Positions 8,773-29,016 of a stretch of 64,000 bases of DNA are shown one piece after another; positions within the stretch are counted from its first letter, which is position 1, and the number at the start of each line of letters is the position of its first letter. The notes beneath the pieces are model-generated. The model was not told the DNA's origin and searched no databases. It saw only the letters and a program-made list of their open reading frames with translations. The stretch is from NCBI GenBank assembly GCA_019307815.1, contig JAFDIV010000003.1:6353-70352 (forward strand). The letters are read 5' to 3'. The DNA comes from Deltaproteobacteria bacterium. GTDB lineage: Bacteria; Desulfobacterota; DSM-4660; Desulfatiglandales; Desulfatiglandaceae. The translations under genes were made by a program, and so were the position numbers.

Positions 8773-8872
8773 AGATGCACAAGGGCAAAAAAATATTAGC
8801 AGATTTTTGTTGATGAAAACAATGTTTTTCGAAAGCTCACTTTTCGAGCAAAAAGCCAGGAGGCTTGCGAAA
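8773..8872 (-). promoter_or_regulatory. CRISPR leader (AT-rich) with candidate promoter
   Basis: This is a 100-bp AT-rich stretch between the cas4 stop and the first repeat. On the minus strand there is a TAATAT -10-like hexamer (plus-strand coordinates 8793-8798) about 20 nt upstream of the first repeat, with TTGTTT 18 nt further upstream. A small AAGCC-TCCT-GGCTT hairpin followed by Ts sits just after cas4. Confidence 0.55.
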
Positions 8873-12371: not shown

Positions 12372-12653
12372 ATGCCAATCGTAAAAATGTCCTCCAAAGG
12401 CCAGATCGTCATCCCCATAGAGATAAGGAAGAAGCTGGGCATAAGACCGGGCCAGCGAGTGAACCTTACCGTCGTGGACGACAAGGCCTTCATCACGCCC
12501 CTCCCCGAGGATCCGATCAAGGCCCTGAGAGGTATTCTGAAGGGCAAGCCCTCCATGGCCCAAGCCTTGGTAAAGGAGCGAAAGCAGGAGGTCGAACGTG
12601 AAGAGGAAATCACTGCTCGATTCCTTCGCCGTTCTGGCGTGGATCCAAGATGA
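12372..12653 (+). CDS. vapB: AbrB/MazE/SpoVT-family antitoxin (VapB-like)
   Basis: 93 aa. The N-terminal SSKGQIVIPIEIRKKLGIRPGQRV is the swapped-hairpin AbrB-type DNA-binding motif. It is followed by a PIN-domain gene. Confidence 0.8.
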   Translation: MPIVKMSSKGQIVIPIEIRKKLGIRPGQRVNLTVVDDKAFITPLPEDPIKALRGILKGKPSMAQALVKERKQEVEREEEITARFLRRSGVDPR

Positions 12654-13002
12654 GGAGGGGGCCCAAGTAGTCGAAGACCTCCTGTACGGGGCCCAACGCG
12701 GTGAGGGGCAGATCATCATGAACATCATCAACCTCGGCGAGGTCTTCTACCGCTGCGCCCGGCTCCAGGACCTCCAATTCGCCCGCGACATCCTGGAAAG
12801 ATTCCGGCTGTTGCCCATCAGGATAGTTCCCTGCCCCAATGATCTGGTCCTCCAGGCTGCGGAGATCAAGGCCGAATATCCCATTGCCTATGCTGATGCC
12901 TTCGTCGCCGCGACCGCCCTGAGCGAGGACGCTCAAGTGGTGACCGGAGACCCCGAGTTCAAGAAGCTCGAACACCTCATCCAGGTCCATTGGCTCTCCT
13001 GA
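12598..13002 (+). CDS. vapC: PIN-domain ribonuclease toxin (VapC-like)
   Basis: 134 aa from a GTG start. It has the N-terminal SLLDS acidic motif, then YADAFVAATAL and VVTGDPEF, which are typical of PIN/VapC. The 56-nt overlap with vapB depends on this start choice. Confidence 0.75.
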   Translation: MKRKSLLDSFAVLAWIQDEEGAQVVEDLLYGAQRGEGQIIMNIINLGEVFYRCARLQDLQFARDILERFRLLPIRIVPCPNDLVLQAAEIKAEYPIAYADAFVAATALSEDAQVVTGDPEFKKLEHLIQVHWLS

Positions 13003-13127: not shown

Positions 13128-13239
13128 GCCAAACGCCCCGCGGAGGGTAACCCCCCTTGTTCATCCGGGGAAGCCGGATGGGTTCTCTCGGGGAGAAGGC
13201 AAAACGCAGGTGTGTGAGATAAAACCCAGGATCGCTCAT
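13128..13239 (-). pseudogene. Decayed 5' relic of a cas6 gene (about the first 37 codons, frameshifted and truncated)
   Basis: The ATG at 13239 lies 10 nt after the cas5 stop. The translation MSDPGFYLTHLRFAFSPREPIRLPRMNKGG aligns with the intact Cas6 N-terminus ...WHLRLTLEPEEPIRLPRMNKGI. The nucleotide core TTGTTCATCCGGGGAAGCCGGATGGG is identical to 12011-12036. An extra G in a G-run shifts the frame while nucleotide similarity continues (CGCGGGGCGTTTGG). Confidence 0.75.
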
Positions 13240-13249
13240 GGATTGCCGT

Positions 13250-13900
13250 TCATCTTCTTGTTTCCATTTCTTCATATAATGTAAATCCTCGACTTGAACG
13301 TACAGGTCTAAGGGGCAATACAACGTGGTGGAAGACCCGGTCCTTGCCTGGCTTGATCTTTTTTGCGTGATAAATGTTTACGTGATCAAACGTAAGGCCA
13401 GGGCCGCAGTCGTCCACCATTTGCAGCGTGCCCAGTGGGAAAGTACTGCCCACGCTTTCGGTCAATACCGTGAACCCCTCCGGGAATTCTCCCACCTCCA
13501 CAGGTGGCCGCACCAATTGGATGAATCCGCCCCGCTTGCCGATATAATTGAGCTGCAAGAGGAGCGGCGTCAGTTCGGCGTGCGTTATGCCGGATAGGGC
13601 CAATGTAAGCGGACCACCGAACTGCACGTATTCCCGAAACCCGATACTGGATTGATAAGGCCACTTGCGCTCTGTCTTTGCCTCGATGATCAGCCGCTCC
13701 TTTTCAGCCTTGAGGTCGCGAATCGCCGGAAAAAGCTCTTGTCCTCGTTCCATCCCCTGGGTGCGGATGGCCGCATCCAGCAGTCCCATTTTGATGGCAA
13801 AAGGCGTGGGCACGAGGAGGGATTTTCCGCCGGAGGAAGTGGCCGTATAAGGTCGAAGACTGAAGAACGCGGTGGGCTGATACTCAGCTATCGTCCACAT
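13250..13900 (-). CDS. cas5: Type I Cas5-family RAMP
   Basis: 216 aa. FFSLRPYTATSSGGKSLLVPTPFAIKMGLLDAAI fits the Cas5 N-terminal pattern. It lies immediately downstream of cas7. Confidence 0.65.
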   Translation of the reverse strand: MWTIAEYQPTAFFSLRPYTATSSGGKSLLVPTPFAIKMGLLDAAIRTQGMERGQELFPAIRDLKAEKERLIIEAKTERKWPYQSSIGFREYVQFGGPLTLALSGITHAELTPLLLQLNYIGKRGGFIQLVRPPVEVGEFPEGFTVLTESVGSTFPLGTLQMVDDCGPGLTFDHVNIYHAKKIKPGKDRVFHHVVLPLRPVRSSRGFTLYEEMETRR

Positions 13901-13919
13901 AGCCTATTCTCCCTTTTGT

Positions 13920-14897
13920 CTACACTGTCATTGCAAATGGGGAACTCGTCTCAATCAGTTCCTGCATCAGCTCTGCGAAATCGCCCAACGTAGCGAAGCG
14001 CTCGACATGGACCGCCCCCGGATGGAGCTTGTTAAGCGCACTGGCAATGCACTGGATCTCCTCCAGGTAGGCGGCGTTGAGTGGGCTGACTGTGGGTGCG
14101 GGGAGGACCTGGGTGGTGTAAGTCACGGCGCCTTCAAACGCTACGATGTGGGGCAACTGCGCTGCCCGCATGGCACCCTTGGGGTGGATAAAGGTATAGA
14201 CCAGACTCTCGAGCAAGGCCTTGTATCGATTCTTCCGTCCTTCCTCATTGATCGCATACTTGCGGCTGATGTCGTTAAACCCGATCCGGTTGATCTCGTG
14301 GTGACTGACTACGGCATAAATACCTGAAGAGGCAGGTCTATGGAAGGGCGTCTGCCCCAGGTTGGCCTTGCGGGCCTCTTCCTCGCTTACTGCCGTCCGC
14401 GCGGCTTCTCCTCGCTCGGTCATATACTTGACGTGGAAATAGGAGTCGGTCTTGGTTGCCTCGGGCAGTCCCACCACCCAGCCAAACTCGACCACACTCT
14501 TTCGGGGGGTGGAGCGGTCGGCGGTGATCAGATTGCCTTCAATGTCATCCAAAGTGCAGCGCTTTAGCATCAGGTCAATGGCCTCGACGTCGCTTTTGCC
14601 TTTGATCAGAGTGGTATACTCTGAGTCGGCGCTGATGCGGTTGGCATCAAAGACCTGGCAGGCGGCACATAGGGGCAGTCCCTGGCCGTTGCGGGCGATG
14701 TGGTACAGGTGCTCGGCCTGGATGTGCTTGAACATGTCCCCACTGATGGCGTTGACATTGTACAATTGCCCGTCTGCTCCAACAATATCCACCATGCGGG
14801 TCTGTATCTGCGTTCCCTCGCTCCCTTCGTTATTCAAGCTGTGCATGTCCAATGTTGCCCGGGCGCAGATTGAGAGAGAATACACTTGATTGGTCAT
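13920..14897 (-). CDS. cas7: Type I Cas7 backbone subunit (DevR/Cst2/Csa2-like)
   Basis: 325 aa. ATLDMHSLNNEGSEG and NAISGDMFKHIQAEH are hallmark strings of the DevR/Cst2/Csa2 Cas7 group. Confidence 0.85.
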   Translation of the reverse strand: MTNQVYSLSICARATLDMHSLNNEGSEGTQIQTRMVDIVGADGQLYNVNAISGDMFKHIQAEHLYHIARNGQGLPLCAACQVFDANRISADSEYTTLIKGKSDVEAIDLMLKRCTLDDIEGNLITADRSTPRKSVVEFGWVVGLPEATKTDSYFHVKYMTERGEAARTAVSEEEARKANLGQTPFHRPASSGIYAVVSHHEINRIGFNDISRKYAINEEGRKNRYKALLESLVYTFIHPKGAMRAAQLPHIVAFEGAVTYTTQVLPAPTVSPLNAAYLEEIQCIASALNKLHPGAVHVERFATLGDFAELMQELIETSSPFAMTV

Positions 14898-14899
14898 GG

Positions 14900-15346
14900 C
14901 TATTCCTCCTCTGTTGCAATTTCGTTTTCCCTGGGTTCGGTTCCGAGTTCTTCGGCCTCGTGGGGCTCGCGGGCATAGCCGAAGGCCACCAGCAGGTTGG
15001 CCACCGTTTGGGACCCATATTCATCAACCAATGAGACCACCTGCTCAATATCTTCGGTCGTAACTTGTGCGCGATGTACCGGCGGGTTGCCCTTGTACCG
15101 CTCGTAGACCTGCATCGTCTCCCGATTGTAATCATAGAGAAAATCGCTCAAGGTTTGGATAAAGCGGGCCGGGTACGCGGCCTGGCGCAGCAGTTCGGCG
15201 CCCAGTCCGTAGCGGATATCGTATGGCTGCGGCGGATCGCCGCCGCGATCTTCTGGAATCCTGGGCTGTCCAGAATTGCCTTGAGTTTCGCGTTGTGTCC
15301 CATGATCAATACCTCCAGGTTGCTGGTTGAAAGACGAGGCGCCCAT
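14900..15346 (-). CDS. C-terminal (possibly Cas11-like) part of the type I large subunit, in the -1 frame relative to cas8
   Basis: Only the part from ...QPYDIRYGLGAELLRQAAYPARF... (roughly 15235 downward) looks protein-like. The first ~45 codons of the listed ORF are low-complexity out-of-frame sequence overlapping cas8. There is no convincing independent start. Confidence 0.5.
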   Translation of the reverse strand: MGASSFNQQPGGIDHGTQRETQGNSGQPRIPEDRGGDPPQPYDIRYGLGAELLRQAAYPARFIQTLSDFLYDYNRETMQVYERYKGNPPVHRAQVTTEDIEQVVSLVDEYGSQTVANLLVAFGYAREPHEAEELGTEPRENEIATEEE

Positions 15347-16656
15347 CTCCCCTTGTCTATTCTTGACATGGTTAATTGGGCGTAACCGCCTGTAAACTGG
15401 AAAAACGGTTTTATGTCGTGGCCTGAGAGGAAATCCCGGTAGAGTTGCAGGAGCCGGTATTCGTCGGCATTGCCCTCCTGCAGGCTGTCCACGATCCGGC
15501 GGTGCTCTTCCAGCGCTCCCCGATATGCACGGCCCTGGGCTTCGTTCGTGACCTTCATCCAGCGGGGCAGGTTAATTCCGGAGAGGTTGAGCAGAGCCAC
15601 GGCGCTGCCCATGTCCTTGTAAAGCGCCATGTCCATACCCGCGACATAATCACCCGGCTCCTCCCCCCAGCGGACATCGGCCAACTGGCCGGCAAGCCAT
15701 TGGTCAAAGAAGGCCTTCGTGTACCGCAGTGCCACAAGGACATCCAGTTTGACCGCGCTATTACTTCCTATGGCCCGGTTGAAAACTGTGTAGACCTTGT
15801 CGTGGGTGTCGAGCGTGATGTTGACCGGGTGCAAGACGTAGGTCTTGCGATCTTGTGGAGAGCGCCCTGGGCCCGGCCTGGCTGCCCTAATGATACGCGG
15901 CACTCCGGTACGCCGCATGCCCCAAAACTTGAGGAATTCCAAGAGCCAGAAGGAATCCGGGTTGCCGAGCTGAGGGCCGTCAGCCTTGGGTCGATTGATA
16001 CCCTTGCCCATGGCAGGGTTGAGAGCCTGGACAGGAGTGACGTTTTTCAACTTGATGCCGTGCGCTTTGCTCAGCTTTTCCCACTGCTTCTCCGCGGTAT
16101 CCACGTCATTCGGTGTAGAGGCGAAAAGGGACAGGAGCAGGCGCACAAGGTCGGGGAAGCAGGTGCGGCATTCGAACCAGGCCGAGAGCACCTTGCAATA
16201 GGCGTCCATCGCCCTCATCTGATTGATCAGTTCCAGGAACGGCAGGTCGGAGCGTGGAGCAAGGGCATGGACTACAGCCAGCTCGGGGTACTCGTCCACT
16301 GTCGCACCTGGGTGCTTGGCCTCCTTGGCAAGCTGCTGGCGGGCCGCAAAAAACTCGCTGCGGCGCTCCCGCTCGGCGTTATAATCCACCACCTCGCCAG
16401 GCCAGCCATCTGGCGGCTGCTTCTTGCCGGCCTGGATGAAGGGGAGATCACAGAACCAGGCGATCGCCTCAAAGCCTTTTTCAATAGAGTCTTCCAGTGT
16501 GATGGCGTAGACACTGCCTGCGTCCTGCACGCGCACGATGGCCTCTCCAAGGTTCTCCTGCAGCAGCCGCTCCAGGAGGGAGGCGACCCCATAGGCAAGC
16601 AGGACATCAGCAAATGTATCAGTTGCCTTGTCTACGTAGTATGTGGATTGGTACAT
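15148..16656 (-). CDS. cas8: Cas8-like large subunit of the type I module (reading frame interrupted near 15230-15250)
   Basis: 502-aa ORF in the large-subunit position upstream of cas7-cas5. I recognised no diagnostic motif, so the call is positional. The last ~25 codons (SHTISATDWAPNCCARPRTRPALSKP) look out of frame. Confidence 0.55.
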   Translation of the reverse strand: MYQSTYYVDKATDTFADVLLAYGVASLLERLLQENLGEAIVRVQDAGSVYAITLEDSIEKGFEAIAWFCDLPFIQAGKKQPPDGWPGEVVDYNAERERRSEFFAARQQLAKEAKHPGATVDEYPELAVVHALAPRSDLPFLELINQMRAMDAYCKVLSAWFECRTCFPDLVRLLLSLFASTPNDVDTAEKQWEKLSKAHGIKLKNVTPVQALNPAMGKGINRPKADGPQLGNPDSFWLLEFLKFWGMRRTGVPRIIRAARPGPGRSPQDRKTYVLHPVNITLDTHDKVYTVFNRAIGSNSAVKLDVLVALRYTKAFFDQWLAGQLADVRWGEEPGDYVAGMDMALYKDMGSAVALLNLSGINLPRWMKVTNEAQGRAYRGALEEHRRIVDSLQEGNADEYRLLQLYRDFLSGHDIKPFFQFTGGYAQLTMSRIDKGRWAPRLSTSNLEVLIMGHNAKLKAILDSPGFQKIAAAIRRSHTISATDWAPNCCARPRTRPALSKP

Positions 16657-16773: not shown

Positions 16774-17673
<900 letters not shown>

Positions 17674-18051
17674 CTACCCCAGAGCCTTGGCGTGGTAGCG
17701 GGCATAGATGAGGGCCTGCTCCAGCAGCCGCTTGGCAAGGAGGAGTTGATCGAGGTCGCCGGCCAAGTGCTCGCGTACGGCCGCTAGGGGTTCGTCGACA
17801 TTTTCAAAGCCCTTGACGCCAGCCTGCTTTAACAATTTTTTGGCTTGATCGCGCAACTTGTCGGCGCCTGACTTTTCGCGCTGGCCGCGCGAGGCCTGAT
17901 ACAGGAAGAAGGCGTAGACCCCATCCTCCTGCAGTACGCCGAGGGATTTTGTGATGTGGTTTTCGGCATTCTTGCCGATTGCCTCGTGCACTTGCTCGGC
18001 CATTGCCCAACCAAATTTGGCGCACAGTTGATCCAGATTCTGCCCCGTCAT
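17674..18051 (-). CDS. cmr5: Type III small subunit Cas11 (Cmr5-like)
   Basis: 125-aa protein of helical character. Its ATG overlaps the upstream cas7 stop (ATGA at 18048-18051). Its position between the cmr4-like and cas5-group genes matches III-B/III-C order. Confidence 0.6.
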   Translation of the reverse strand: MTGQNLDQLCAKFGWAMAEQVHEAIGKNAENHITKSLGVLQEDGVYAFFLYQASRGQREKSGADKLRDQAKKLLKQAGVKGFENVDEPLAAVREHLAGDLDQLLLAKRLLEQALIYARYHAKALG

Positions 18052-19037
18052 GGCGCATCTCCCGCGTTGAGATTCCACACGCGCAGCCGCCCCATCCCGC
18101 GGGTGTTCATTCCCCCTACGCCAAGATGTATAAAGAGAGAGAGGCCGTCCTTCACTGTGGTCTTCACTTTGTCGATATCGCCGTTAGGATGGTCGGGATC
18201 GCTGAGCGGAATAACCGACTCGGTCCCCTTTTTGCCATTTTTCTCAACGGTTCTGGCGATGCGATAGTACTTGGGGTCGCTGATCACCACGTCAAAATAC
18301 AGCACGCTAGCACGGGGTAGGGCTTCGTAAGTGAAGAGCGCTTTCTCGGCCGCAGCGCCGGTCTGCGGGTCAATGCTCACCGAGGTGCGCACCTCCAGGT
18401 TGTCGTTTACGATATGGCCAAACATCTTGTTAGAAACCAGCACGGCGCATTTGAGAATCTCCTGGGGAACACCGGGAAACTTTTGGGTATCCAGGGCGAA
18501 GTTGTTTCCCGCCACCTCCAGCATCAGCCAGCCCAGGTTGAGTTTGCCGCTCTGCTGCACGCCAGCGGCAACGCGCACCTTGCCATCGTCATCTATTTTG
18601 GGCGGATTTTCAATGCCCGCGCTGCCCAGAGCGTCCGCGCAGGTGATCCAGACGGGGCCAGCCAGGGAGTGGACGGGGAAGAAGAGCAGTCGCGCGTCGA
18701 AAAACTGCGCCAGGCCCTGGAAACTGCCGCCTTCGCCTTTGGAAAAGCCAAAGGTCACACAGATGGGGCAATCGGGCCGGCCGCAGTGACCTTGGAAACC
18801 CCGGTCTTTGTCAGCCTGCCCCTGGCCAGCGCAGCCGGGGAACTTGCCCTCTTCCTGCATCGCGGCGTAGGTGCGTGCCGCACCGGAAAGGCTGGTGCCG
18901 GGAATTTTGGGGAGATCTGTCCCAGGCTCGCGCACGATGCTCATGTCAACGCGCCCCAGGCGCATCCCGCCCGTCCCCACGTGGATTGGGTCGAGGGCGA
19001 GGGCTAAATACTTGGTTACGTCAGATTGATAAACCAT
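18048..19037 (-). CDS. cmr4: Type III Cas7 backbone RAMP (Cmr4/Csm3-like)
   Basis: 329 aa. DPIHVGTGGMRLGRVDMSIVREPGTDLPKIPGTSLSGAARTY matches the Cmr4/Csm3 N-terminal motif, including the Asp at the RNA-cleavage position. There is a 4-Cys insertion (C...HCGRPDCPICVTFGF) and a C-terminal GVGGMNTRGMG G-rich loop. Confidence 0.8.
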   Translation of the reverse strand: MVYQSDVTKYLALALDPIHVGTGGMRLGRVDMSIVREPGTDLPKIPGTSLSGAARTYAAMQEEGKFPGCAGQGQADKDRGFQGHCGRPDCPICVTFGFSKGEGGSFQGLAQFFDARLLFFPVHSLAGPVWITCADALGSAGIENPPKIDDDGKVRVAAGVQQSGKLNLGWLMLEVAGNNFALDTQKFPGVPQEILKCAVLVSNKMFGHIVNDNLEVRTSVSIDPQTGAAAEKALFTYEALPRASVLYFDVVISDPKYYRIARTVEKNGKKGTESVIPLSDPDHPNGDIDKVKTTVKDGLSLFIHLGVGGMNTRGMGRLRVWNLNAGDAP

Positions 19038-19038
19038 T

Positions 19039-21819
19039 TCACGCCTCCTTGATCTTCAGTTTGAGAATGTGCAGATAAAGTTCCAGGCAGCGGGCAAACC
19101 GGCCACTGATCACGTCTTCCGGTGAAACTACATCGGGCAAAGGGTTGCTTTCCTTGTCTTTACGTTCAAACAGCCCGCCCTCCTTGAGCGTTGTTCGCGT
19201 CAGACGCCTAAACTCCTCGCTGTCCTTGCCCCAGGTCGCGCCTTTGCTTTCCAAGAGCGCCTGCACATTGCGCAGGCCGGTATCGGTGATTCCACTCTTT
19301 TTCAGGGCGCCCCACATCTCCATCAGCCGGGGGAGCTCCTCCAACAACAGCACATCTTGCTGCGGGTCGAAGCGGAAGCGCTTTGCGGTGTGGTCCAGCC
19401 AGAGGTAAGCCAGGCGCGAGGGGGTAACCTCAACCACGTCGTGCTGCTTCAAGTCGTTCACGTGCACAAGCCAACTGCCATTTTGCTGGAAACGATACCG
19501 GCGGCGATCCGCGGTGCCATCGGCGAACTGTTTGACGTAAAAGTAGGGATACCAGTAGTCTGGCGTCGTGCCGTCACCCATCAAGGTTGGGATGTTCCAT
19601 TCAACACCATTTGTAAATGTGATTTGACCGTTGGTCACGTCCTGCGCCAGCGTCCACGATTCCTCTTCCAGGGGAACTGCCAGCATCCGCCGCGCAGTAT
19701 CCATCGCTGCCATCAGCGGCATTTTACGTGGGAAGAAGACGATGCCCAGGAAAAGCGGCAGGCGATTTTGGACTTTGCCCATCTGGTTCTGGTATTCGCT
19801 CTTGATTTTTTCGGCAATTTCCAGCGCCTCGGATGCTGGTACGAGGGCCATGAAGCGGTCGGGGGATTCCGGAAGGGAAAGGTAAGGAACATACGTTTGG
19901 ATCGGTTCGCCGCTCAGGGATTGCACATGTTGAACGGTAAAAGTTCGTGTCCGAGTGGGCCGATCGGGGAGGGAGACCGTGCACATGCGCCCGTGCCATT
20001 CCCTGACCAAACCGGGTTCATCTTTGGCCTGGGAAACGCCCAGTTGCAGGTTGCTGATGGTGATAAAACGCTTCTCCTGGTCCTGCCAGAGGAGGCTCAC
20101 CGCTTTGCCGTTGATGGTCCCGTCGTAAGGGGCACCCTCTTGCCAGCCGCCTGTAGTATCTGGGATAACGGCCACCCTCGCACAGCGAAGGGGGTCTTGC
20201 CCACCGAAAGATTGCCCGGCCAAGATGCTTCCCAACACTGTCTCTGTCCAGAATCGCTGACAGGTCTCCCAGACGCGGCGCAGCCGGGCCGGGGATGGGT
20301 TCTTGGGTGTGCAGGCGGCGGGATTGTTCTCAACCGCCTTGACCAGCATGGTCTGCACCAGGTCGCCGGAAAGCCAGCGGTCCAGGCCGAATTTTCCCAC
20401 GATCAGCGCTACCCGGCCGTTGTGGTCGGCGATCTCGTCGATCCAGATCGTTTGCTGAGGATTGCTTTCCCAGGCTTTGATGCGGGACACACGCCGTTTC
20501 AGGCACTTCTCACATGCCTGGTTGCCCTCGCGCTTGGGCCGCAGGCAGCAGACGGGGCAGACCTCCCATTTACCTGGCCCCACCGTCGTCCACTGCTGCT
20601 GCCAGCAGGCGCTTAGATTTTGGCTATCGAAGGGCTGCGCCAACGCTTCTAGCGCTTCCTTGCGCGCCTTGCCCAGGATACCCTTGAGTTGCTCAGCGGC
20701 GGTATTGCCGTCACCCTCCGTGACAACAATGCGCGGGGCGAGTTCCATCTCCACCTTTTCCACGCGGCGGCGGATTTCCTGCGCCAGGTCAGCGGGCAAG
20801 TCCAGATCGGGGAAGGTGAAGTAGATGCCGCTGGTGTCGCGATAGATTTCGTTGCCGAGGGGGTATACCTCCTCGATCAGTTTCTTGACCGTTTCACAGG
20901 CTTTCTCCACGGCGCGCCGGTAGCCGAGCAGGTCACCGATTTTGATCGCTTTGGCGTAGAGACCGAGTACATCGAAATTGATGCGGAGGAGGCGCCAGCG
21001 GAGATCGTGGTCAATGACCTTATCTGACCAACTTTTCCACTGCCTTATGTCTGGCTGCTGGTTCCCAAGCAACGCTCCAGCAATAGCTGGTTTGAAAAGT
21101 GCGCCGACGATCCAACTCCAGTCTGACAGGACTACTTCATTGATAGGTCGGCGAGTATCTCCTAGACCGGAAACGAATTCGCTCAGAATCACACCGCGCT
21201 TAGGGGGAACAAGTAACCCCTGAAGGCGGTTATCCAAACTTTGTGGAGATGTATTGACAACAACCTTCTGCCCTTCATAGCCGAAAGCGGTGCTGATGAA
21301 TACATCAGGCCAAGTTTGATCGCCTTGACCTTTTGGTGGATCTTGCTTGTCTACATGGGCTTCGTTGTGACATACGCCGAGGACCGCCGCAAGCCACCCC
21401 GATTTTCCATCCAATAACTGAGAGCGATTTCTAGCAGTAGCGAACCCCGGCGTTCCAAGCATGATGAGTTCAGCTAGGGAATAACTTTCACTGAATAAGC
21501 TAATGGTTGCATTCTGCAAAAAGTTCTTGAGGTTGCGAGAAATGAAATCGGCCGCTTTCGGAGTTTGCGCATTCAAAACGTTATTCAATACATCCGGCTT
21601 TCTGAGTGATGCCGCTGCTTTGCTCAGGCGGATGACAGAGCCTGGATTGTCTATAATGGCCTTGTAAGCATGGTTGTTCGACCACCTTTTCTTTCCTTTT
21701 GTCGCATTTGACTCGACATGTAAATTGCAAAATTTCCCCCCATCATGCAGCAGCGCCGCCACCTCCGCCAGGAGCAGGGCGTCGCGGTTATCGGCCAGTA
21801 CTTTCAAATCAATCGTCAT
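19039..21819 (-). CDS. cas10: Cas10-like large subunit with an N-terminal HD motif and a degenerate cyclase (palm) motif
   Basis: 926 aa. It has the HD motif AALLHDGGKF plus downstream VCHNEAH, a Zn-finger-like CPVCC...CEKC, and palm-like segments IWIDEIADHNGRVALIVGKFG, SPARLRRVWETCQRFW and SPDRFMALVPASEALEIAEKI...LFLGIVFF. There is no GGDD string anywhere. Confidence 0.75.
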   Translation of the reverse strand: MTIDLKVLADNRDALLLAEVAALLHDGGKFCNLHVESNATKGKKRWSNNHAYKAIIDNPGSVIRLSKAAASLRKPDVLNNVLNAQTPKAADFISRNLKNFLQNATISLFSESYSLAELIMLGTPGFATARNRSQLLDGKSGWLAAVLGVCHNEAHVDKQDPPKGQGDQTWPDVFISTAFGYEGQKVVVNTSPQSLDNRLQGLLVPPKRGVILSEFVSGLGDTRRPINEVVLSDWSWIVGALFKPAIAGALLGNQQPDIRQWKSWSDKVIDHDLRWRLLRINFDVLGLYAKAIKIGDLLGYRRAVEKACETVKKLIEEVYPLGNEIYRDTSGIYFTFPDLDLPADLAQEIRRRVEKVEMELAPRIVVTEGDGNTAAEQLKGILGKARKEALEALAQPFDSQNLSACWQQQWTTVGPGKWEVCPVCCLRPKREGNQACEKCLKRRVSRIKAWESNPQQTIWIDEIADHNGRVALIVGKFGLDRWLSGDLVQTMLVKAVENNPAACTPKNPSPARLRRVWETCQRFWTETVLGSILAGQSFGGQDPLRCARVAVIPDTTGGWQEGAPYDGTINGKAVSLLWQDQEKRFITISNLQLGVSQAKDEPGLVREWHGRMCTVSLPDRPTRTRTFTVQHVQSLSGEPIQTYVPYLSLPESPDRFMALVPASEALEIAEKIKSEYQNQMGKVQNRLPLFLGIVFFPRKMPLMAAMDTARRMLAVPLEEESWTLAQDVTNGQITFTNGVEWNIPTLMGDGTTPDYWYPYFYVKQFADGTADRRRYRFQQNGSWLVHVNDLKQHDVVEVTPSRLAYLWLDHTAKRFRFDPQQDVLLLEELPRLMEMWGALKKSGITDTGLRNVQALLESKGATWGKDSEEFRRLTRTTLKEGGLFERKDKESNPLPDVVSPEDVISGRFARCLELYLHILKLKIKEA

Positions 21820-22240
21820 CGGTCACCTCTTGGACAAGTTGTTCGATTCGATCGAGGATATTTTCGGCCGTAGTCAGGGCCTCTCTGGCTTCCTCTTCAC
21901 CAAATAACTCCCAGGGTAAACGACCACCGAATTCGTCTCCATAATCCGTCTGCACATGGAGCTGCGGACCTAGGGGCTGCCCCATTTCGGCTACATGTTG
22001 TACCTCATTCCCCCAGCGAGAGGGAATCTGTTGGCGGGCAACAAGTTCCAGCAAGATGCGCGCCGGATCATGTGTTTTTGGAACCGGTAGGAACACTCCA
22101 ATCAGGGCTTTCAAGGCGTTCTCGACTGCTAATTGGGCATGGGATACCGTGGCGCGCCACCGGCGCAAGCTGAGGTCCTGTCGGGCCTCGTCCAAAAAGC
22201 CGCGAGCCAGTTCAAGGCGAAACGTAACGTTCTCTTTCAT
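21809..22240 (-). CDS. HEPN-domain protein (toxin-type partner of the MNT)
   Basis: 143 aa from the first ATG (MKENVTF...); the longer listed ORF begins at a TTG. ARGFLDEARQDL...ATVSHAQLAVENALKALIG has the helical HEPN pattern. An R-x4-H string (RATVSH) is present, but I cannot confirm that it is the catalytic motif. Confidence 0.7.
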   Translation of the reverse strand: MKENVTFRLELARGFLDEARQDLSLRRWRATVSHAQLAVENALKALIGVFLPVPKTHDPARILLELVARQQIPSRWGNEVQHVAEMGQPLGPQLHVQTDYGDEFGGRLPWELFGEEEAREALTTAENILDRIEQLVQEVTDDD

Positions 22241-22731
22241 GTCGTCCACTCCAATGTCCAATGGCGTTGCGGGTTATCCCGCCAGAGCCAGATCCATTCG
22301 TTCTCGCCAATGGCCTGGCGTTCCAACCCCAAATCGGACAACTGCTTGCGCAAAGCGGACAGACGAACGGACAATAAGGCGTCGGTATTGTCATAGAGCA
22401 CAATGCCATCCAGGGCGATGTCCAGTGCAAGCGGTGTGACCCGAGCGAACCATTCTGAGGAGGTATACGCCAGGATGTTGACTTGATGTCGCCAGGACTG
22501 AGGAAGCAGGGCGAGAATCTGTTTTTGGCGATGCCAGGGGGAATCAGGAAGGTTTTCGGCGATGAGCAGCAGATCCCAATCGCTATCGGGGCGGGCTTCG
22601 TTGCGCGCCCGCGATCCGAACAACACAAGCGCCAGCAGGTTGTCGCCCAGGCCATGGTGTAACGATTCAACCACAGGAGCAAGGACGGCGAGATTATCCT
22701 TCGGGAACTTGTGGGAAGTCTGACTACTCAT
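22237..22731 (-). CDS. Minimal nucleotidyltransferase (MNT, antitoxin-type partner of the HEPN protein)
   Basis: 164 aa. LVLFGSRARNEARPDSDWDLLLI is the GS-x(n)-D-x-D pol-beta-type NTase signature. Confidence 0.8.
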   Translation of the reverse strand: MSSQTSHKFPKDNLAVLAPVVESLHHGLGDNLLALVLFGSRARNEARPDSDWDLLLIAENLPDSPWHRQKQILALLPQSWRHQVNILAYTSSEWFARVTPLALDIALDGIVLYDNTDALLSVRLSALRKQLSDLGLERQAIGENEWIWLWRDNPQRHWTLEWTT

Positions 22732-23672
22732 TGCGCGTCTCCTTGCTCTTTCAAAAGCGTTTCCACAAGCTCGCTCAATCCGGCGAATGAATCGAACTCA
22801 CGCTTCAACCAGATCGGCTCCGATGGTTCAACAGGCTTGGCAACTTCTGCAGGGGGTTTCTCCGTTTCTTTGATGCGGATTTGAACAAAGCCATCATTGA
22901 CTGACTCTTCCGCCACCCCATACCCACTGTTGCGTTTGGCAGAGAAGCCGTAGGTGAGGAACATCGCTTTTAGACTTTCAGCGACCAGGTTCAGGTCTTC
23001 CAGCGCCTGCCGTCGGATGTCGGCTTCGTCCCTGCCGATCAGATCAAAGGGGACATAGAGCAAGGAGAAAGTGCCGTGCGCTCCGGCGGGGACACTCTCA
23101 AACAGAATTGGGTTTTTCCCCACACGGCGTTTGCGATCGTGGGGATTGATGATTTCAAGGCTGGTTTCAGTAAAGAAAGTCGGGTAGAAAAACAGGCGCC
23201 CAGCTTTGCCGTCTTCTTCGCCGCGAATTTCACCAAAGAGGCGCTGCATTTGTTCTTCATTTTGTTTATCGTGTCCCAACTGCCAGAGTGCCGAATACAG
23301 GTTGCCTTTCCAACTGGTGGAGCGCACCATCGGCAACTGGAAGACTTTATCGCGCACAATGGGGTTGTCGATGATGTAGAAGGGATTATCGTCTTTGGAA
23401 ATGTAGGGCCTGGTAAGGGTGAAGGTGAACTGCAGAAACCAGGAAAAGGGCGGAAGGGGATTGAGCTCAATAGTCGGACTTGCAATCATCTGCCAGAGCT
23501 CATTGCTGGGTTCAGAAAAAGAAATTTTGTCTGCTTTTTTGCTCCATGCAGCACGCAAGTTGTCTGCATCCTTCTTTTTACCCTCTGCTATCAGCCGATG
23601 GTAATGGACAGTAACCCCATCAGTATTTTGAGGGTTGCGTTTATCCAATTCAACGAAATAGTCTATGCTCAT
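22728..23672 (-). CDS. cmr6: Type III RAMP (Cmr6/Csm5-like Cas7-group subunit)
   Basis: 314 aa from MSIDYF.... An AGGAGG RBS lies upstream, and the ATG overlaps the cmr1-like stop as ATGA. It has PMVRSTSWKGNLYSALW (the S-x-KG-x-xR/S pattern) and RLFGEIRGEEDGKAGRLFFYPTFF (FG...G-x-l-x-f). Confidence 0.7.
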   Translation of the reverse strand: MSIDYFVELDKRNPQNTDGVTVHYHRLIAEGKKKDADNLRAAWSKKADKISFSEPSNELWQMIASPTIELNPLPPFSWFLQFTFTLTRPYISKDDNPFYIIDNPIVRDKVFQLPMVRSTSWKGNLYSALWQLGHDKQNEEQMQRLFGEIRGEEDGKAGRLFFYPTFFTETSLEIINPHDRKRRVGKNPILFESVPAGAHGTFSLLYVPFDLIGRDEADIRRQALEDLNLVAESLKAMFLTYGFSAKRNSGYGVAEESVNDGFVQIRIKETEKPPAEVAKPVEPSEPIWLKREFDSFAGLSELVETLLKEQGDAQ

Positions 23673-24892
23673 TTTGTTCCTCCTGCGCCCTGTTCCAGAA
23701 TATCTTTGCCCAATACCGCTGAGATTTTTTGGGCTTTTGTATCGAAAACGTGTCGCATGTACTCTTCCAGCATGGCTATCAATGCCTGTGGGGTGGGTAA
23801 TCGGTGTTGGAGCTCTGGCGGCAAAAATGCCCAAACGCGCAAGATATAAACCTCTTTGCTTTCTGGCTTCTGGTAAGGCATTCCAAAGAAGACGCGGCTG
23901 GCTGTGCGAAAATCATCATCAATTTGTCCTTGATTGTTACCCCTTCCCCATTGGGAGCGGGGACCTAAAAGGATGTCGAGTTCTTCCAATTTTTGAGGAT
24001 CAGTTGTTTCCTTCCAGCCTTTGCCCTTAAGCCATTGGCGCATCCCAAAGTTGCCTGTGCCTTTGTAACGCAAATCAAAGGCGCAAGGAATGTAACGATT
24101 CTTCTCCCTTTTGTTGGTCTTGCCGATGTGCGTCCTTTCTGTTGTGAAAGCGTTCAATTGGCTTTTGGAAATCTCAAAAGTGAGGCTGACCAGTTTACGC
24201 AGGTCAAACGGCGTTTCAACGACAGGGCCACTGGAACGAAGTACACCCATTCGGAGTTTGGCTTGTAAATCTTGTATCCCTCTCTCCAGGGTGATGTCAT
24301 TCACCTGCATAGGAAAGACAAATTGCCCAAAGCCATGCTGCAACCTCGCCCCAATGCCACCATATTCAGCCGCAACGCGCAGGATCAGGGCAAACTGACT
24401 CCTGGCGTACTCTGCATCGGACCGGCGGGAGACAAATTGAAAGAGGAGTTCTCCATAGGGCACTTGTAACGAGTCAATATTCTGATTCTCGCCGCCGAAG
24501 ACGCGTTTTAGCCACCCTTGATTCATTTTGATGGTTGTGCGAAAGTGCAAGGGGGTCATAGGTACTTCCATTGCTCTCAACTGAAATAGCCGTGCCCAAC
24601 CTGTTGTCCCAAAAAGGTAACAAACCGGGCACACGCTATTCAGTCCAGCGTTGATAGCTTCGGCTTCAGGCTTACCATCCCTTTTAGCTTGTTCGTAAGA
24701 TTTGGCATCGAACTCACATCGCGTTTTTGGGTCTTCACTCGTCGGATCACATGCATATCCTCCTAGGCCTCGCACAATGGCCTCATACCACCACCGCAGT
24801 GAGCCAATGATGCCGGTCTCGTGCAGGCGGTCGCATGTCCGATCCACCCCTCCGGTCCAGAGCGGAGTCAGTGTCCTTATTTTTATGTCCAT
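23669..24892 (-). CDS. cmr1: Type III RAMP (Cmr1-like Cas7-group subunit)
   Basis: 407 aa. RTLTPLWTGGVDRTCDRLHETGIIGSLRWWYEAIVRGLGG resembles the Cmr1 N-terminal signature. There is a 4-Cys insertion ending CPVCYLFGTTGW. Confidence 0.7.
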   Translation of the reverse strand: MDIKIRTLTPLWTGGVDRTCDRLHETGIIGSLRWWYEAIVRGLGGYACDPTSEDPKTRCEFDAKSYEQAKRDGKPEAEAINAGLNSVCPVCYLFGTTGWARLFQLRAMEVPMTPLHFRTTIKMNQGWLKRVFGGENQNIDSLQVPYGELLFQFVSRRSDAEYARSQFALILRVAAEYGGIGARLQHGFGQFVFPMQVNDITLERGIQDLQAKLRMGVLRSSGPVVETPFDLRKLVSLTFEISKSQLNAFTTERTHIGKTNKREKNRYIPCAFDLRYKGTGNFGMRQWLKGKGWKETTDPQKLEELDILLGPRSQWGRGNNQGQIDDDFRTASRVFFGMPYQKPESKEVYILRVWAFLPPELQHRLPTPQALIAMLEEYMRHVFDTKAQKISAVLGKDILEQGAGGTK

Positions 24893-24922: not shown

Positions 24923-27316
24923 TTAGGTTTGCGGTCGCACGCCGTTTTGTAATGCCCGCTGATCGGCCATTTTGACCACCCGCGCCAGGAGCAAGTAGGG
25001 CAGTAATTCGGCATCCCGTCGGGGCCGGATCAGCCGCCGGGACAATTCCCCTTCCTGAAATTCCCACCTTATCCCCTCTACGTCTCCCAGCAATCCCTTG
25101 AGCGCTGTCTTGGCCACAGGGTGGGCGCGGAAAGGGCCGTGGCGGCCGTTGGCCCCGGCACTGTGGTGCCTGACGATGGCCGTCAGTGCGGCGCGTGCCA
25201 ACGCCGGGTCAGGGGTGCGGGCCAGCAACCAGTCCATTGCCGCTGCCGCGCCTGACGCGGCGTGGTTGGGCCTCATTCGGCTTAACTTCCTGTTCAGGGC
25301 TTGCTCCGGCCCGCTCTGCTCGTCGTAGTCCGTGTGCGCTACCAGATAACCTTCTGGGACTTGCAGATTTTGGCCCCGCACCCTGCCCACCTCTTCCTGC
25401 CAGCGGTGGGCCCAGTCTTGCCATTTGACGTCCAGCTTGCCCACGTCATGGAAAGCGATGACCCACCGAGCCAGGCGGTGCAGTGTGCCTGCCGGCCATC
25501 CATACTTCTGCTCCATCCGGCGGGCAGCATAGCCCAATTCTTGGGCCAGCGGCAGCCGTTCCACTCCCTTGTCTCGGTCGAAAAAGGGATGCTCGTAAGC
25601 CCCTAGCATCCGGGCCACATGTTCCTGGAAAGTCTCGCGGTGGTAAGGGTTGGGCCACCCCCTGTCCCTCTCCCGGAGAGGCGAGGCCCACTTCCCATCG
25701 CCAAGCACACCTAGCCGGAACCCGGCCTCCGGGCTGTAGGTGGCCAGGCGGGGGTTGACTGCCAGGATCAGCGCGCCGAGCAGCTCATCCTTGTTCAGGA
25801 TGGGCCGCCATTGCCAGGCGGTCCTTTCGCGGGAGGACTCCTCCTCGGGCAGCGGCTCCGCCGTCATCAGCACCCACTGTTCATTCAGCTCCTCCGCCAG
25901 AGCTTGCAGGCCGTCGAAGGCTCCAAAGAGACTTCCGCGAAAGAGCCCGAAGCCTTCGTAAGCCCACGGGTTCTCAATGCGCCCTGGCTCAGGATGAACG
26001 ATGACCGTGCGGCTTTCCACGTCGCGGATTAATTGACGCGCCGCCCCTTGTTCTTGCATCTCAATAGTATTTGCAATGCGATGAGCAACGGTAAAGCGAC
26101 TGGCCCTGAGACCCTCCAGCAGGTGTTGATCCGCCTCCTCATGGGCCGCATTGACAATTGCCAGTTCAGTGTGAAAGTCAAACACCTCACCGGAACGCTC
26201 GGCAAGGGCTGCCCAGGTCTTCTCACAGATTTCCGTCTGGATGCCGAGATAGGGGGCGTAGTTGGGACCACCATCCTTGTTAACAGGGAGGCGGTAGACC
26301 CATACATCCCCCTCCTCCCCCTCGTAGCGGGCGCAACGGCCTGCCCTTTGGACGATTGAGGCGGCCGGGGCCAGCTCGGTATGAAGCCCCTGGCAGGTAA
26401 TGTCCAGCCCCACCTCCACGACCTGGGTCGCCACCAGGATGGCGCTCTGGACGGTGTAGATGCTCCTGTCCTTGCCGAACTCGCGGCGCAGCCACTCTTC
26501 CTGCGCTTCCCGGTCGCTGCGCAGGAAACGACTATGGAGCAGCCGCACCTCAACCCCAGATCCGGCGATCCGACGCAGTTCCTCGAAGAGCGCCTGGGCC
26601 CGCTCCACCGTGTTACAGATGACGATGGACCGTTGCTTGTGCCTGTCCAGCACCGCCCGGGCCGTCAACCCGGCCTCCACGGTATGCACGCGGCGTGTTT
26701 TCTGCTGCGAGGGCATGGCGGCCAGTTCCTCCGGCAGCAACACCAGCGGCTCGGCATCCAGCTCCCGGGACAGAGCTTCGATCATCTGCCCAGAGAGCGT
26801 GGCGCTCATGGCGATGAAAGGGACGATGCCGCGAAGCAGCCGCAACAGATGCAGCGTGGTCGGCAGACTTGTCTGGGGATCAAACAGGTGGAACTCGTCA
26901 AAGACCAGGTAGGAGCAAAGCACGGCCCCGGCGTTGAGGTTTCCTTGCCCCAAGCTGAGAGAATACGGAATGTTGAGGAAATTGCTCAGAGTTTGGTCAA
27001 TAGTGGTAAAGATCAGATTGCCCTCAAGGCGGGGGTCCTCGGGGCGGCCGCCGGTCTGGACCGTCACATCCATGGGGCGAGTGAAGCCGAAATTCACAGG
27101 CCGGTCCTTGTATTCGTCCCAAAACTGGTTGGCTAACACCCGCAGCGGCACGGAATAGATACACTTGCGGGGAAAATCTTCGCCATACTCCCAAGCACGG
27201 AAGAAAGGGAAGAGCGCGGCACGAGTCTTGCCTGAGCCGGTTGGCGCCTGAAGAATCACGGACCTGCCAGATAAAATCAGTTCGCCGACTTTTTCTTGGA
27301 AAGGATATAATTCCAT
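24923..27316 (-). CDS. cas3: Cas3 helicase-nuclease with a C-terminal HD domain
   Basis: 797 aa. It has helicase motif I (QAPTGSGKT), motif II (VFDEFH), SAT (MSATLS) and a QRAGRCAR arginine finger. The C-terminal HD-type motifs are AFHDVGKLDVKWQ, VAHTDYD, NHAASG and IVRHHS. Confidence 0.9.
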   Translation of the reverse strand: MELYPFQEKVGELILSGRSVILQAPTGSGKTRAALFPFFRAWEYGEDFPRKCIYSVPLRVLANQFWDEYKDRPVNFGFTRPMDVTVQTGGRPEDPRLEGNLIFTTIDQTLSNFLNIPYSLSLGQGNLNAGAVLCSYLVFDEFHLFDPQTSLPTTLHLLRLLRGIVPFIAMSATLSGQMIEALSRELDAEPLVLLPEELAAMPSQQKTRRVHTVEAGLTARAVLDRHKQRSIVICNTVERAQALFEELRRIAGSGVEVRLLHSRFLRSDREAQEEWLRREFGKDRSIYTVQSAILVATQVVEVGLDITCQGLHTELAPAASIVQRAGRCARYEGEEGDVWVYRLPVNKDGGPNYAPYLGIQTEICEKTWAALAERSGEVFDFHTELAIVNAAHEEADQHLLEGLRASRFTVAHRIANTIEMQEQGAARQLIRDVESRTVIVHPEPGRIENPWAYEGFGLFRGSLFGAFDGLQALAEELNEQWVLMTAEPLPEEESSRERTAWQWRPILNKDELLGALILAVNPRLATYSPEAGFRLGVLGDGKWASPLRERDRGWPNPYHRETFQEHVARMLGAYEHPFFDRDKGVERLPLAQELGYAARRMEQKYGWPAGTLHRLARWVIAFHDVGKLDVKWQDWAHRWQEEVGRVRGQNLQVPEGYLVAHTDYDEQSGPEQALNRKLSRMRPNHAASGAAAAMDWLLARTPDPALARAALTAIVRHHSAGANGRHGPFRAHPVAKTALKGLLGDVEGIRWEFQEGELSRRLIRPRRDAELLPYLLLARVVKMADQRALQNGVRPQT

Positions 27317-28115: not shown

Positions 28116-28373
28116 ATGTCTAATAGAATTCAGAAGAATTTTTTCAACCCTTATCTAGGGACTAGTGAAATGACCTTGAAAGATATCGTCTGGGACTACC
28201 CACGGCCTTTAGACGACAAACTATGGAGGGCTAGGAGGATGGCCGAATACCTTCCATTTGTCCTTGATAAGCTCACCCGCAAAGACAAGGAAATCCTTCT
28301 GGAACACCTCGACAAGATTGATCTCCCCGAGGAACGAAAAGAATTCATAAGACTGGTGTGCAGTGGAAAATAG
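28116..28373 (+). CDS. Small hypothetical protein, possible partner of the downstream AbiEii-like gene
   Basis: 85-aa ORF overlapping the next gene by 11 nt. I recognised no motif. Confidence 0.4.
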   Translation: MSNRIQKNFFNPYLGTSEMTLKDIVWDYPRPLDDKLWRARRMAEYLPFVLDKLTRKDKEILLEHLDKIDLPEERKEFIRLVCSGK

Positions 28374-29016
28374 GGTACTCACTGAAAAACAAAAACTTTT
28401 GATTGCAAGTCTCCCTGAAGAAATATTGGACGGGTTTTATCTTACGGGAGGGACCGCCCTTTCGGCCTTTTATATCGAGCACCGCCTTTCCATGCATATG
28501 GACTTTTTCACTGATAAAAAAAAGGGCATTCCCCCTGTTGAGTATCTCAGGGCGATGTTGAGGAAGGTTCCATACCTAGAGGCTGTCCATTTTGAACGCC
28601 TCTTTGATCGAAGGATTTTCAGGCTGAGCTTTAGTGGCGGCGATATTTTGAATGTGGAGTTTACACTATATCCGTTCAAAGGCCTTGGACAAAGAAAGAA
28701 GATAGGAAGGCTCTGGGTTGACAGCCCGCTTGATATAGCAACGGGTAAACTGTTTGCCATGACAGACAGGTTCGATCCAAAAGACTTTGTTGATCTCTAC
28801 TTTATTCTTCGGGATTTCGAATGGACATTGAATGAGCTTTTAGAAAAAGCCACTTTCCGTTTCGAGGTAAAGGGCTTACAATATACTGTGCCAGAGAGAT
28901 TATTGCTGGTACGGAAAATCGAGACAGATGACTTGCCGATTATGCTTAAAGACTTAGATATCGAAGAGATGAAAAAATATCTTATGAGTAAGGCCTCTGC
29001 TTTGGCCGGAGCGTGA
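28363..29016 (+). CDS. AbiEii/AbiGii-type nucleotidyltransferase (DUF1814-like toxin family)
   Basis: 217 aa. GFYLTGGTALSAFYIEHRLSMHMDFF and the later DFVDLYFIL resemble the AbiEii NTase fold motifs. Confidence 0.6.
   Translation: MENRVLTEKQKLLIASLPEEILDGFYLTGGTALSAFYIEHRLSMHMDFFTDKKKGIPPVEYLRAMLRKVPYLEAVHFERLFDRRIFRLSFSGGDILNVEFTLYPFKGLGQRKKIGRLWVDSPLDIATGKLFAMTDRFDPKDFVDLYFILRDFEWTLNELLEKATFRFEVKGLQYTVPERLLLVRKIETDDLPIMLKDLDIEEMKKYLMSKASALAGA

Follow-up and report, generated by a model that had tools for sequence, protein, structure and literature searches.

Introduction

Type III-C is the least understood of the type III CRISPR subtypes. Its loci were found in a 2024 survey to be without cyclase sites and without known effectors (PMC11229360), and accessory cluster 174 (Adeg_0809, 'nucleotidyl trans.') was listed for III-B and III-C in 2018 by Shah et al. 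(PMC6546367). Modules of a HEPN protein and a minimal nucleotidyltransferase (MNT) have long been known from defence islands (PMC3632139); a HEPN domain joined to an MNT in one protein is as a rule the inactive partner, and motif-less HEPN domains may use other residues or act non-catalytically (Anantharaman et al. 2013, PMC3710099). The type VII toxin–antitoxin module HepT/MntA was represented for comparison by SO_3165/SO_3166 of Shewanella oneidensis and by the Aphanizomenon flos-aquae pair (PDB 7bxo, 6m6u, 7ae9, 7aer). Here, an MNT gene and a HEPN gene (together, the pair) were observed inside a type III-C operon in a 64,000-nt stretch of a Deltaproteobacteria metagenome-assembled genome (contig JAFDIV010000003.1), the whole of which is called the window; surveyed loci are numbered L001, L025 and so on. 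The reading preferred here, with a probability of roughly 0.55, is that the pair represents an optional, horizontally exchanged accessory cassette of a rare CRISPR-linked MNT–HEPN subfamily, coupled with the III-C (Csx11) genes. The cassette, which would be toxin–antitoxin-derived, is CRISPR-linked, contains a non-canonical HEPN protein and is no core III-C gene. The YGDE subfamily of HEPN proteins to which it belongs, the fixed position in III-C operons and the missing catalytic dyad were not found in earlier descriptions, HEPN–MNT modules of defence islands being already known, and no paper describing MNT–HEPN inside III-C operons was found by full-text search.

Position of the pair in the type III-C operon

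The junctions, read directly from the sequence, give the minus-strand order cas3, cmr1, cmr6-like, MNT, HEPN, csx11, cmr4, cmr5 and cmr3, with the following features.

24923..27316, minus strand, cas3 (helicase, C-terminal HD domain; Pfam DEAD, Cas3-like_C_2, Cas3_HD), upstream of the III-C module
23669..24892, minus strand, cmr1 (TIGR01894 cmr1, 5.4e-19)
22728..23672, minus strand, cmr6-like RAMP of group 7 (Pfam RAMPs, 8.4e-10; weak NCBIfam matches to Cmr4, Csm3 and Cmr6)
22237..22731, minus strand, MNT, 164 aa, MntA-like minimal nucleotidyltransferase (Pfam, AlphaFold2 (AF2)/Foldseek)
21809..22240, minus strand, HEPN protein, 143 aa, PF05168 (HEPN-T class), 'YGDE' subfamily
19039..21819, minus strand, csx11, the Cas10 of type III-C (TIGR02682, 7.6e-133)
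18048..19037, minus strand, cmr4 (TIGR02580, 6.3e-29, above cutoff)
17674..18051, minus strand, cmr5-like small subunit, 125 aa (assigned by position and conservation in III-C loci, 40–85% identity; no Pfam match)
16774..17670, minus strand, cmr3, group 5 RAMP (PADLOC Cmr3, 4.9e-77; III-B/III-C model, 1.2e-70)

The depositors' annotation of this genome already gives three of these proteins generic names. The genes from cmr1 to cmr3 form a chain joined by overlaps or by spacers of 1–3 nt, in which the cmr6 stop and the MNT start have the ATGA at 22731-22728 in common, the MNT stop and the HEPN start have the ATGA at 22240-22237 in common, and the HEPN stop (TGA, 21811-21809) falls 11 nt inside csx11, whose ATG lies at 21819. 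Similar ATGA overlaps join cmr1 to cmr6 (23672-23669) and cmr4 to cmr5 (18051-18048), while the csx11 stop (19041-19039) is followed after 1 nt by the cmr4 ATG at 19037, and the cmr5 stop (17676-17674) after 3 nt by the cmr3 GTG at 17670. A purine-rich, Shine-Dalgarno-like stretch precedes each start, within the preceding gene. A consensus scan detected promoter-like sites at chance level (7 observed against 5.7 expected), with the best minus-strand site at 27800-27772, upstream of cas3, and none immediately ahead of MNT that could serve the pair. The initial annotation, made from the letters alone, had described these stop/start junctions and spacings and had read the pair as a true link of the operon, and both descriptions are upheld. 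As ATGA overlaps of four bases are widespread in operons, the coupling is by itself unremarkable; the recurrence of the same arrangement in unrelated metagenomes exceeds chance.

Recurrence of the pair in other loci

Close homologues of HEPN were collected, metagenome contigs were scanned with the HEPN profile, the best 80 of at least 314 matches were kept, and the matching contigs were mapped by tblastn with the Cas proteins of the window. The sample, selected by similarity to a query that is itself embedded in III-C, comprised 64 distinct HEPN sequences, with 43 contexts judged and 21 contigs too short. The judged contexts were distributed as follows.

29 of 43, inside III-C operons
9 of 43, beside other cas genes (I-D cas3', I-A cas8a/cas7/cas5a, cas6, cas4, WYL)
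5 of 43, on long contigs among housekeeping genes, with no detectable cas genes

For copies without III-C genes, a pooled Pfam scan of the neighbouring genes supplied counts per family. In this best-80 sample, 38 of the 43 judged copies adjoin cas genes, which marks them as CRISPR accessories by neighbourhood. Among the 29 III-C copies, 14 are flanked by both cmr6 and csx11, 7 show cmr6 only, 4 show csx11 only, and 4 lie between cmr1 and cmr6 or adjoin cmr1; the flanks of 21 copies (the 14 with both neighbours and the 7 with cmr6 only) fit the cmr6|csx11 junction. MNT stands directly upstream of HEPN in almost every locus with a long enough contig, and HEPN abuts csx11 in the pair-bearing loci with an 11-nt overlap or a gap of 3–21 nt. 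The arrangement cmr6-MNT-HEPN-csx11 was also observed in L025 (Chloroflexus sp. MS-G) and in about 25 metagenomic loci, and in loci with the pair, Csx11 identity to the window protein amounts to only 29–73%. Conserved cmr6-MNT-HEPN-cas10 synteny, for which the initial annotation had proposed a survey, is therefore found in many loci, and absence of the pair from all close homologous loci, named there as grounds for giving up its hypothesis, was not what was seen. In L007–L009 the Csx11 is 53% identical to that of the window, yet MNT is 84% and HEPN 81% identical. The linkage of the subfamily to cas operons is strong but not exclusive, and lies mostly at the cmr6|csx11 junction.

The subfamily gave no tblastn match in 72,556 plasmids and no match in the viral contigs of IMG/VR; an origin as a mobile plasmid or phage toxin–antitoxin module was rejected on these searches. 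Outside III-C, a window-type cassette with 85–89% identity occurs in L001–L006 and L035–L037 (for example L002, 8900-10640) at the 3' end of a type I-D operon (WYL regulator, cas10d-like, csc2, csc1, cas3'), accompanied by short cmr6 C-terminal fragments and an extra MNT, with a tandem duplication in some contigs; these loci have no III-C genes, and a trp operon comes next. A 71-aa ORF after HEPN in L001–L006 was considered as a csx11 remnant and rejected, only its first four codons (MTID) matching. In L060 (7495-10598) the next gene after the pair encodes a Csm6, in which Pfam detected 6H and HEPN domains, and cas6 comes after it, indicating that the subfamily also occurs in loci with an effector of the cyclic oligoadenylate (cOA) type. 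Since the subfamily also adjoins I-A, I-D, Csm6 and housekeeping genes, control specifically by Csx11 is argued against.

Csx11 and the missing cyclase

The Cas10 of the window belongs to the Csx11 family that marks type III-C (TIGR02682, 444.8 bits; cutoff 248.95). It keeps an intact HD motif (H25 D26), with H25, D26 and K29 invariant among 22 homologues. No GG[DE][DE] was found in the window Csx11, and the GGDD of Pyrococcus furiosus Cmr2 lies opposite SPDR in a profile alignment with the Cmr2 Palm2 domain, so that the cyclase motif is inactivated as in type III-C. The Cmr-like subunits cmr1, cmr6, cmr4, cmr5 and cmr3 are all present, and their order is repeated in 25 other Csx11 loci. No solved homologue of Csx11, Cmr1 or Cmr3 was found in the PDB beyond the Palm2 segment. 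Pfam detected no CARF domain among the 47 ORFs of the window that were scanned, a set that does not include the ORFs at 56312-63830. The initial annotation had noted a Cas10 without an intact GGDD and a window without a CARF protein; the former was borne out, and the latter held for the ORFs scanned. Neither MNT nor HEPN carries a sensor domain, so the pair, beside a Cas10 that lacks the cyclase motif, does not have the features of a cOA-dependent ancillary effector.

Loss of the canonical HEPN active site

The HEPN protein matches Pfam HEPN PF05168 (E 2.6e-14, 53.8 bits; gathering threshold 22) and showed no match to DUF86/HepT or to the NCBIfam families. Its AF2 model (pLDDT 96.4) is all-helical with the four-helix HEPN fold, and the top Foldseek matches are 1ufb, 2hsb, 1wol, 3o10 (sacsin HEPN) and 1o3u. 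In an alignment of 31 homologues, 39–85% identical to the window protein, the invariant residues are W28, E40, K44, H57, P59, D99, Y100, G101, D102, E103, P109, W110 and F113.

The Arg/His dyad defines HEPN RNases. The string RATVSH, put forward in the initial annotation as an R-x4-H string of possible catalytic role, is present at residues 29-34, but H34 varies among the homologues (H/N/S/G), the string lies within helix 2 of the AF2 model, and by our arithmetic the 12 Arg and 4 His of this 143-aa protein would yield roughly one Rx4-6H string at random; as a catalytic dyad it was rejected, being unconserved, in the wrong helix and expected by chance. A profile search of the PDB placed the canonical I-P-T-R-Y-P-D-A-H/L of TM0613 and TT1696 opposite V-Q-T-D-Y-G-D-E-x, and the motif T-R-Y-P-D-A-H of TT1696 (PDB 1ufb) becomes T-D-Y-G-D-E-x across the subfamily. 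The alignment check that had been suggested for locating an Rx4-6H dyad thus arrives at a canonical site reading D99-Y-G-D-E, with neither Arg nor His, and because this reading holds throughout the subfamily a canonical collateral HEPN RNase is not indicated. Only 658 clusters (50% identity) of 1.84 billion match HEPN at E <= 1e-3 (HMMER), and among the best 146 of these 658 clusters the motif-keeping members read x-Y-G-D-E, with Arg before Tyr once only, which indicates that the Arg/His dyad of HEPN RNases is absent family-wide. The YGDE family keeps the Ex3K motif (E40, K44), two His residues and an acidic cluster.

At least 8 representatives of the YGDE family are MNT–HEPN fusions, and the occurrence of fused forms in the same subfamily argues for an obligate MNT–HEPN complex. 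Two fused members, P0383 and P0424, are without the GS...DxD nucleotidyltransferase motif and have the HEPN motifs EHGDE and AEGDA; they hint that the HEPN part might function without transferase activity. Purifying selection was observed on both genes in ten pairwise comparisons for each, with dN/dS of 0.12–0.23 for HEPN and 0.14–0.24 for MNT, and the comparisons include a copy outside any III-C locus.

The nucleotidyltransferase

MNT matches Pfam Polbeta (9.9e-8) and NTP_transf_2 (5.5e-6). The motif string reported for it earlier is present as GSRARNEARPDSDWDLLL at residues 39-56, and its GSX10DXD (G39 S40 X10 D51 W52 D53) is intact and invariant in 31 homologues, the full set of invariant residues being G39, S40, R43, S50, D51, W52, D53, E93 and D108. 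A C-terminal extension of about 50 aa is Trp-rich and conserved. The best Foldseek matches of the AF2 model (pLDDT 91) are the MntA antitoxins 7bxo, 6m6u, 7ae9 and 7aer, followed by aminoglycoside nucleotidyltransferases and Hailong HalB; in NCBIfam, MNT scores 38.3 bits for MntA_antitoxin against a cutoff of 60 and so falls outside the curated MntA/HepT membership.

A domesticated two-subunit nucleotidyltransferase like KNTase or HI0073/HI0074, with HEPN confined to binding the substrate, is a very improbable reading of these features; the enzyme would serve CRISPR by producing a nucleotide signal or by modifying a protein, a small molecule or the 3' end of an RNA. This reading agrees with the invariant nucleotidyltransferase motif, with the loss of the RNase residues and retention of Ex3K and the acidic cluster, with an MNT fold also like that of aminoglycoside nucleotidyltransferases and of the signal-making HalB, and with the fusions, such proteins having been read as domesticated enzymes by Anantharaman et al. 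2013 (PMC3710099), whereas the fused P0383 and P0424 have degenerate nucleotidyltransferase motifs and no gene that could encode a receptor or substrate was seen to co-vary with the pair.

MntA-type domains in type III complexes

A profile search of the PDB with the MNT alignment returned a marginal match (E 0.0097) to the chains named 'Cmr1-MntA' in 9z7q, 9z7v and 9z7x, and the similarity to 9z7q_I (438 aa) covers the generic motif region only. The best PDB match of the window Cmr4 is 9arw_C, a Cmr4 (1.1e-15), whose sequence is the same in 9z7q, 9z7v and 9z7x, while the window cmr1 gave no PDB match; no publication for 9z7q, 9z7v, 9z7x or 9arw was found by full-text search. These chains are a precedent, showing that type III complexes can physically include an MntA-type domain, and they sustain the reading of a complex-associated pair. 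In the clade of L049, L051 and L052, MNT lies directly after cmr1, and by analogy this would be the unfused equivalent of 'Cmr1-MntA'.

Such contacts bear on two readings. The initial annotation had suggested a HEPN collateral RNase or abortive-infection arm, restrained by MNT, freed by the target-bound Csx11 complex and replacing cOA/CARF signalling. The absence of a cyclase motif from Csx11 and of CARF from the scanned ORFs, a type III-C without known effector (PMC11229360), the conserved operon-internal position, the joining of MNT to a type III complex in the 'Cmr1-MntA' chains and the placement of MNT after cmr1 in L049, L051 and L052 are in its favour; it is nevertheless distinctly unlikely, given a HEPN protein without the Rx4-6H dyad and with an unconserved RATVSH, about 90% of sampled III-C loci without the pair, and occurrence of the subfamily next to operons of types I-A and I-D and at a Csm6 locus with a CARF effector. 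Rather unlikely is also a variant in which the pair docks on the Csx11/Cmr complex and target RNA switches MNT, or frees a HEPN protein with a previously undescribed acidic D-Y-G-D-E site, as a messenger-free output; if it were true, sensing of targets by type III would be linked to an effector by a route without cOA.

Distribution among Csx11 loci and probable cassette exchange

Several observations weigh against the preferred reading of the pair as an exchanged cassette coupled with III-C. The context census is biased toward III-C-embedded relatives because the best 80 of at least 314 matches were used. A Csx11 profile scan with one genome per species gave 25 loci, about 20 of them with a readable cmr6-csx11 junction, and at this site the full pair occurs only in L025 and MNT alone in L028; with about 2 of 20 loci carrying either, the pair is absent from most Csx11 loci and is no core component, any benefit of it is dispensable, and a general output arm of type III-C is not supported. 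In a tree of the Csx11 N-terminal region, pair-bearing and pair-less loci are interspersed; HEPN lineages that share only 50% identity accompany Csx11 genes that are closely related, and the window Csx11 clusters with loci in which HEPN identity is no more than about 50%. Duplicate or degraded copies occur in L001–L006, L035–L037, L040, L045, L073 and L090, some with cmr6 or csx11 fragments, and these also fit a selfish toxin–antitoxin module.

A selfish type VII-like toxin–antitoxin module in a defence island, kept by addiction, at most stabilizing the cas operon like CreTA and without any III-C mechanism, is possible, though doubtful. Its patchy distribution on the Csx11 tree with a phylogeny at odds with Csx11, the tandem duplicates and remnants beside decayed or foreign cas contexts, the five long contigs with the pair among housekeeping genes, the vapBC and AbiEii toxin–antitoxin-like modules of the same locus, and the MNT-then-HEPN order with an MntA-like fold, as in type VII, are what it would explain. 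A plain hitchhiking toxin–antitoxin nevertheless fits poorly, because the in-operon position is fixed (38 of 43 judged copies by cas genes; 21 of 29 III-C copies fitting the cmr6|csx11 junction), the pair has no own promoter and starts inside or overlapping the neighbouring cas genes, and purifying selection acts on the two genes despite a subfamily-wide loss of the canonical toxin motif; the rarity of the subfamily, its absence from the plasmids and viral contigs searched and the existence of fused MNT–HEPN forms argue the same way.

Different histories of the cassette are visible in individual loci. L007 and L042 combine a HEPN 81% and an MNT 84% identical to those of the window with a Csx11 only 53% identical, and L045, L073 and L090 have a degraded second copy after cmr3. 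Two pairs in tandem are found in several loci. In L040 (7525-12078) two tandem MNT–HEPN pairs stand ahead of csx11; the second HEPN is of the canonical 'LPTRYPDALPG' type, ends in ...EVSHDD and has the same 11-nt overlap onto csx11. Between the two pairs lies a 73-aa csx11 5' fragment (8422-8643), whose first 21 residues equal the real csx11 start at 9319 and which looks like a recombination scar. In L010 (7727-10721, a Methanosaeta genome from a metagenome) a distant pair, about 30% identical and with the HEPN motif 'SFYGDEQ', is placed after cmr3 and not before csx11. An overlapping 682-aa ORF with several CxxC motifs and no Pfam match follows this pair. Other HEPN lineages use the same operons, the canonical 'TRYPDA' type in L040 and the 'FYGDE' type in L010. 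The tandem, remnant and degraded copies together with the disagreement with the Csx11 tree indicate recombinational cassette exchange at a fixed site, with frequent loss.

Proposed role of the pair

Since the plain hitchhiker and the Csx11-controlled RNase both fit poorly, an MNT–HEPN complex co-expressed with interference genes is favoured. The pair would descend from a HepT/MntA-type (type VII) module and would still form an MNT–HEPN hetero-complex, in which the active MNT may act upon HEPN or together with it; the invariant Tyr100 of YGDE would be the likeliest target. HEPN would use a non-canonical acidic/His site or act by binding alone, with no RNA cleavage through Rx4-6H. Given its co-expression with interference genes of several CRISPR subtypes, the pair would most likely serve the CRISPR locus as a guard or back-up (abortive-infection or locus-stabilizing) or as a regulatory accessory; it would be unresponsive to cOA and would not be required for core III-C function. 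A rare MNT–HEPN subfamily recurring at one position in III-C operons is a testable candidate for an accessory function, and a HEPN protein that keeps many invariant polar residues after the loss of Arg/His raises the question of its activity. Should addiction prove to be its sole function, the pair would be the protein-based equivalent of CreTA, whose RNAs guard cas operons.

Other features of the locus

The remaining features of the CRISPR locus are as follows.

28363..29016, plus strand, AbiEii-family nucleotidyltransferase toxin gene (Pfam AbiEii, 1.7e-13; PADLOC AbiEii)
13250..16656, minus strand, type I-A-like Cascade genes (PADLOC and Pfam), comprising the next four
15148-16656, minus strand, cas8a (PADLOC Cas8a, 1.3e-41)
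14900-15346, minus strand, cas11/cas8a C-terminal ORF (PADLOC Cas8a C-terminus, 2.1e-21)
13920-14897, minus strand, cas7 (Pfam DevR/Csa2, 2.8e-60)
13250-13900, minus strand, cas5a (PADLOC Cas5a, 4.6e-52)
12372..13002, plus strand, vapBC-like cassette, VapB (AbrB/SpoVT-like) at 12372-12653 and PIN-like VapC at 12598-13002 (from translation motifs only)
11145-12098, minus strand, cas6 (Pfam)
9841-11058, minus strand, cas1 (Pfam)
9447-9791, minus strand, cas2 (Pfam)
8873-9511, minus strand, cas4 (Pfam)
5529..8773, CRISPR array of about 45 repeats of 37 nt (CTTTCAGTTCCCTCTTCATTGGGACATGCTGTGTAAC; Tandem Repeats Finder)

The vapBC-like cassette is inverted, as described in the initial annotation, its translations reading on the plus strand between cas5a and cas6; the minus-strand ORFs 12333-12731 and 12610-13323 were discarded as genes, since the interval is taken up by the plus-strand vapBC and they are probably spurious. 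The AbiEii gene, upstream of cas3, is the third toxin–antitoxin-like element of the locus and has a good promoter-like site ahead of it at 28082-28110. The whole III-C module (16774-24892) is inserted between cas3 and the cas8a-cas11-cas7-cas5a genes of the type I-A-like system, with cas6, cas1, cas2, cas4 and the array common to both, and III-C and I-A-like modules also occur together, in other orders, in L007, L013, L021 and L032. The PADLOC Cas8a profile is divided between a 502-aa ORF (profile positions 64-436) and a 148-aa ORF (449-553; 14900-15346), the latter also being a weak Cas11a match; the same split in L007, L013, L021, L032 and L103 makes it look like a separate small-subunit gene and no sequencing frameshift. 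A LigT/2'-5' RNA ligase-family phosphoesterase gene at 42916-43515 (minus strand), between cinA and recA, is probably part of an ordinary cinA-thpR-recA arrangement unrelated to the CRISPR locus. An Rfam scan of the window gave no match.

Comparison with known systems

The pair resembles HepT/MntA of type VII in having two genes with MNT first and overlapping stop and start codons, a GSX10DXD motif in an MNT whose predicted fold is nearest to MntA antitoxins, and a small all-helical HEPN partner with an invariant Tyr beside the motif region. It differs in that its HEPN belongs to PF05168 (HEPN-T) and not to DUF86/HepT, in that the Rx4HxY RNase/AMPylation motif of HepT is x-Y-G-D-E in the window subfamily, in an MNT that scores below the NCBIfam MntA cutoff and carries the extra Trp-rich C-terminal stretch of about 50 aa, in lying inside a cas operon without its own promoter, and in not having been found on the plasmids or phages searched. 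The HEPN-T/PF05168 proteins TT1696 (1ufb), AF0298 (2hsb), ST0689 (1wol), TM0613 (1o3u) and sacsin (3o10), whose function is unknown, have the same Pfam family and fold and the same Ex3K and 'THD' motifs, whereas their T-R-Y-P-D-A-H/L is replaced by T-D-Y-G-D-E-x in the window subfamily, which is strongly linked to cas genes.

With the 'Cmr1-MntA' of a type III-B complex the window has in common an MntA-type nucleotidyltransferase with a Cmr effector, the Cmr4 of that complex being the nearest solved relative, but MNT is fused to Cmr1 there, and in the window it is separate, paired with HEPN and parted from cmr1 by cmr6. Cluster 174 (PMC6546367) is likewise a nucleotidyltransferase family listed as a type III accessory, including III-C loci; it has three members with no described partner or position and was compared with the window MNT by description only. 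CARF/SAVED ancillary effectors such as Csm6/Csx1 are, like the pair, accessory, patchy and often-swapped genes beside type III effectors, some of them with HEPN domains, whereas the pair has no sensor domain, no signalling cyclase to respond to and a HEPN without the RNase dyad. Finally, the window agrees with the Csx11 loci of type III-C in the order cmr1-cmr6-csx11-cmr4-cmr5-cmr3, the dead cyclase motif and the intact HD, and differs from them in two additional genes between cmr6 and csx11 and in a III-C module that sits within a type I-A-like system (cas3 / cas8a).

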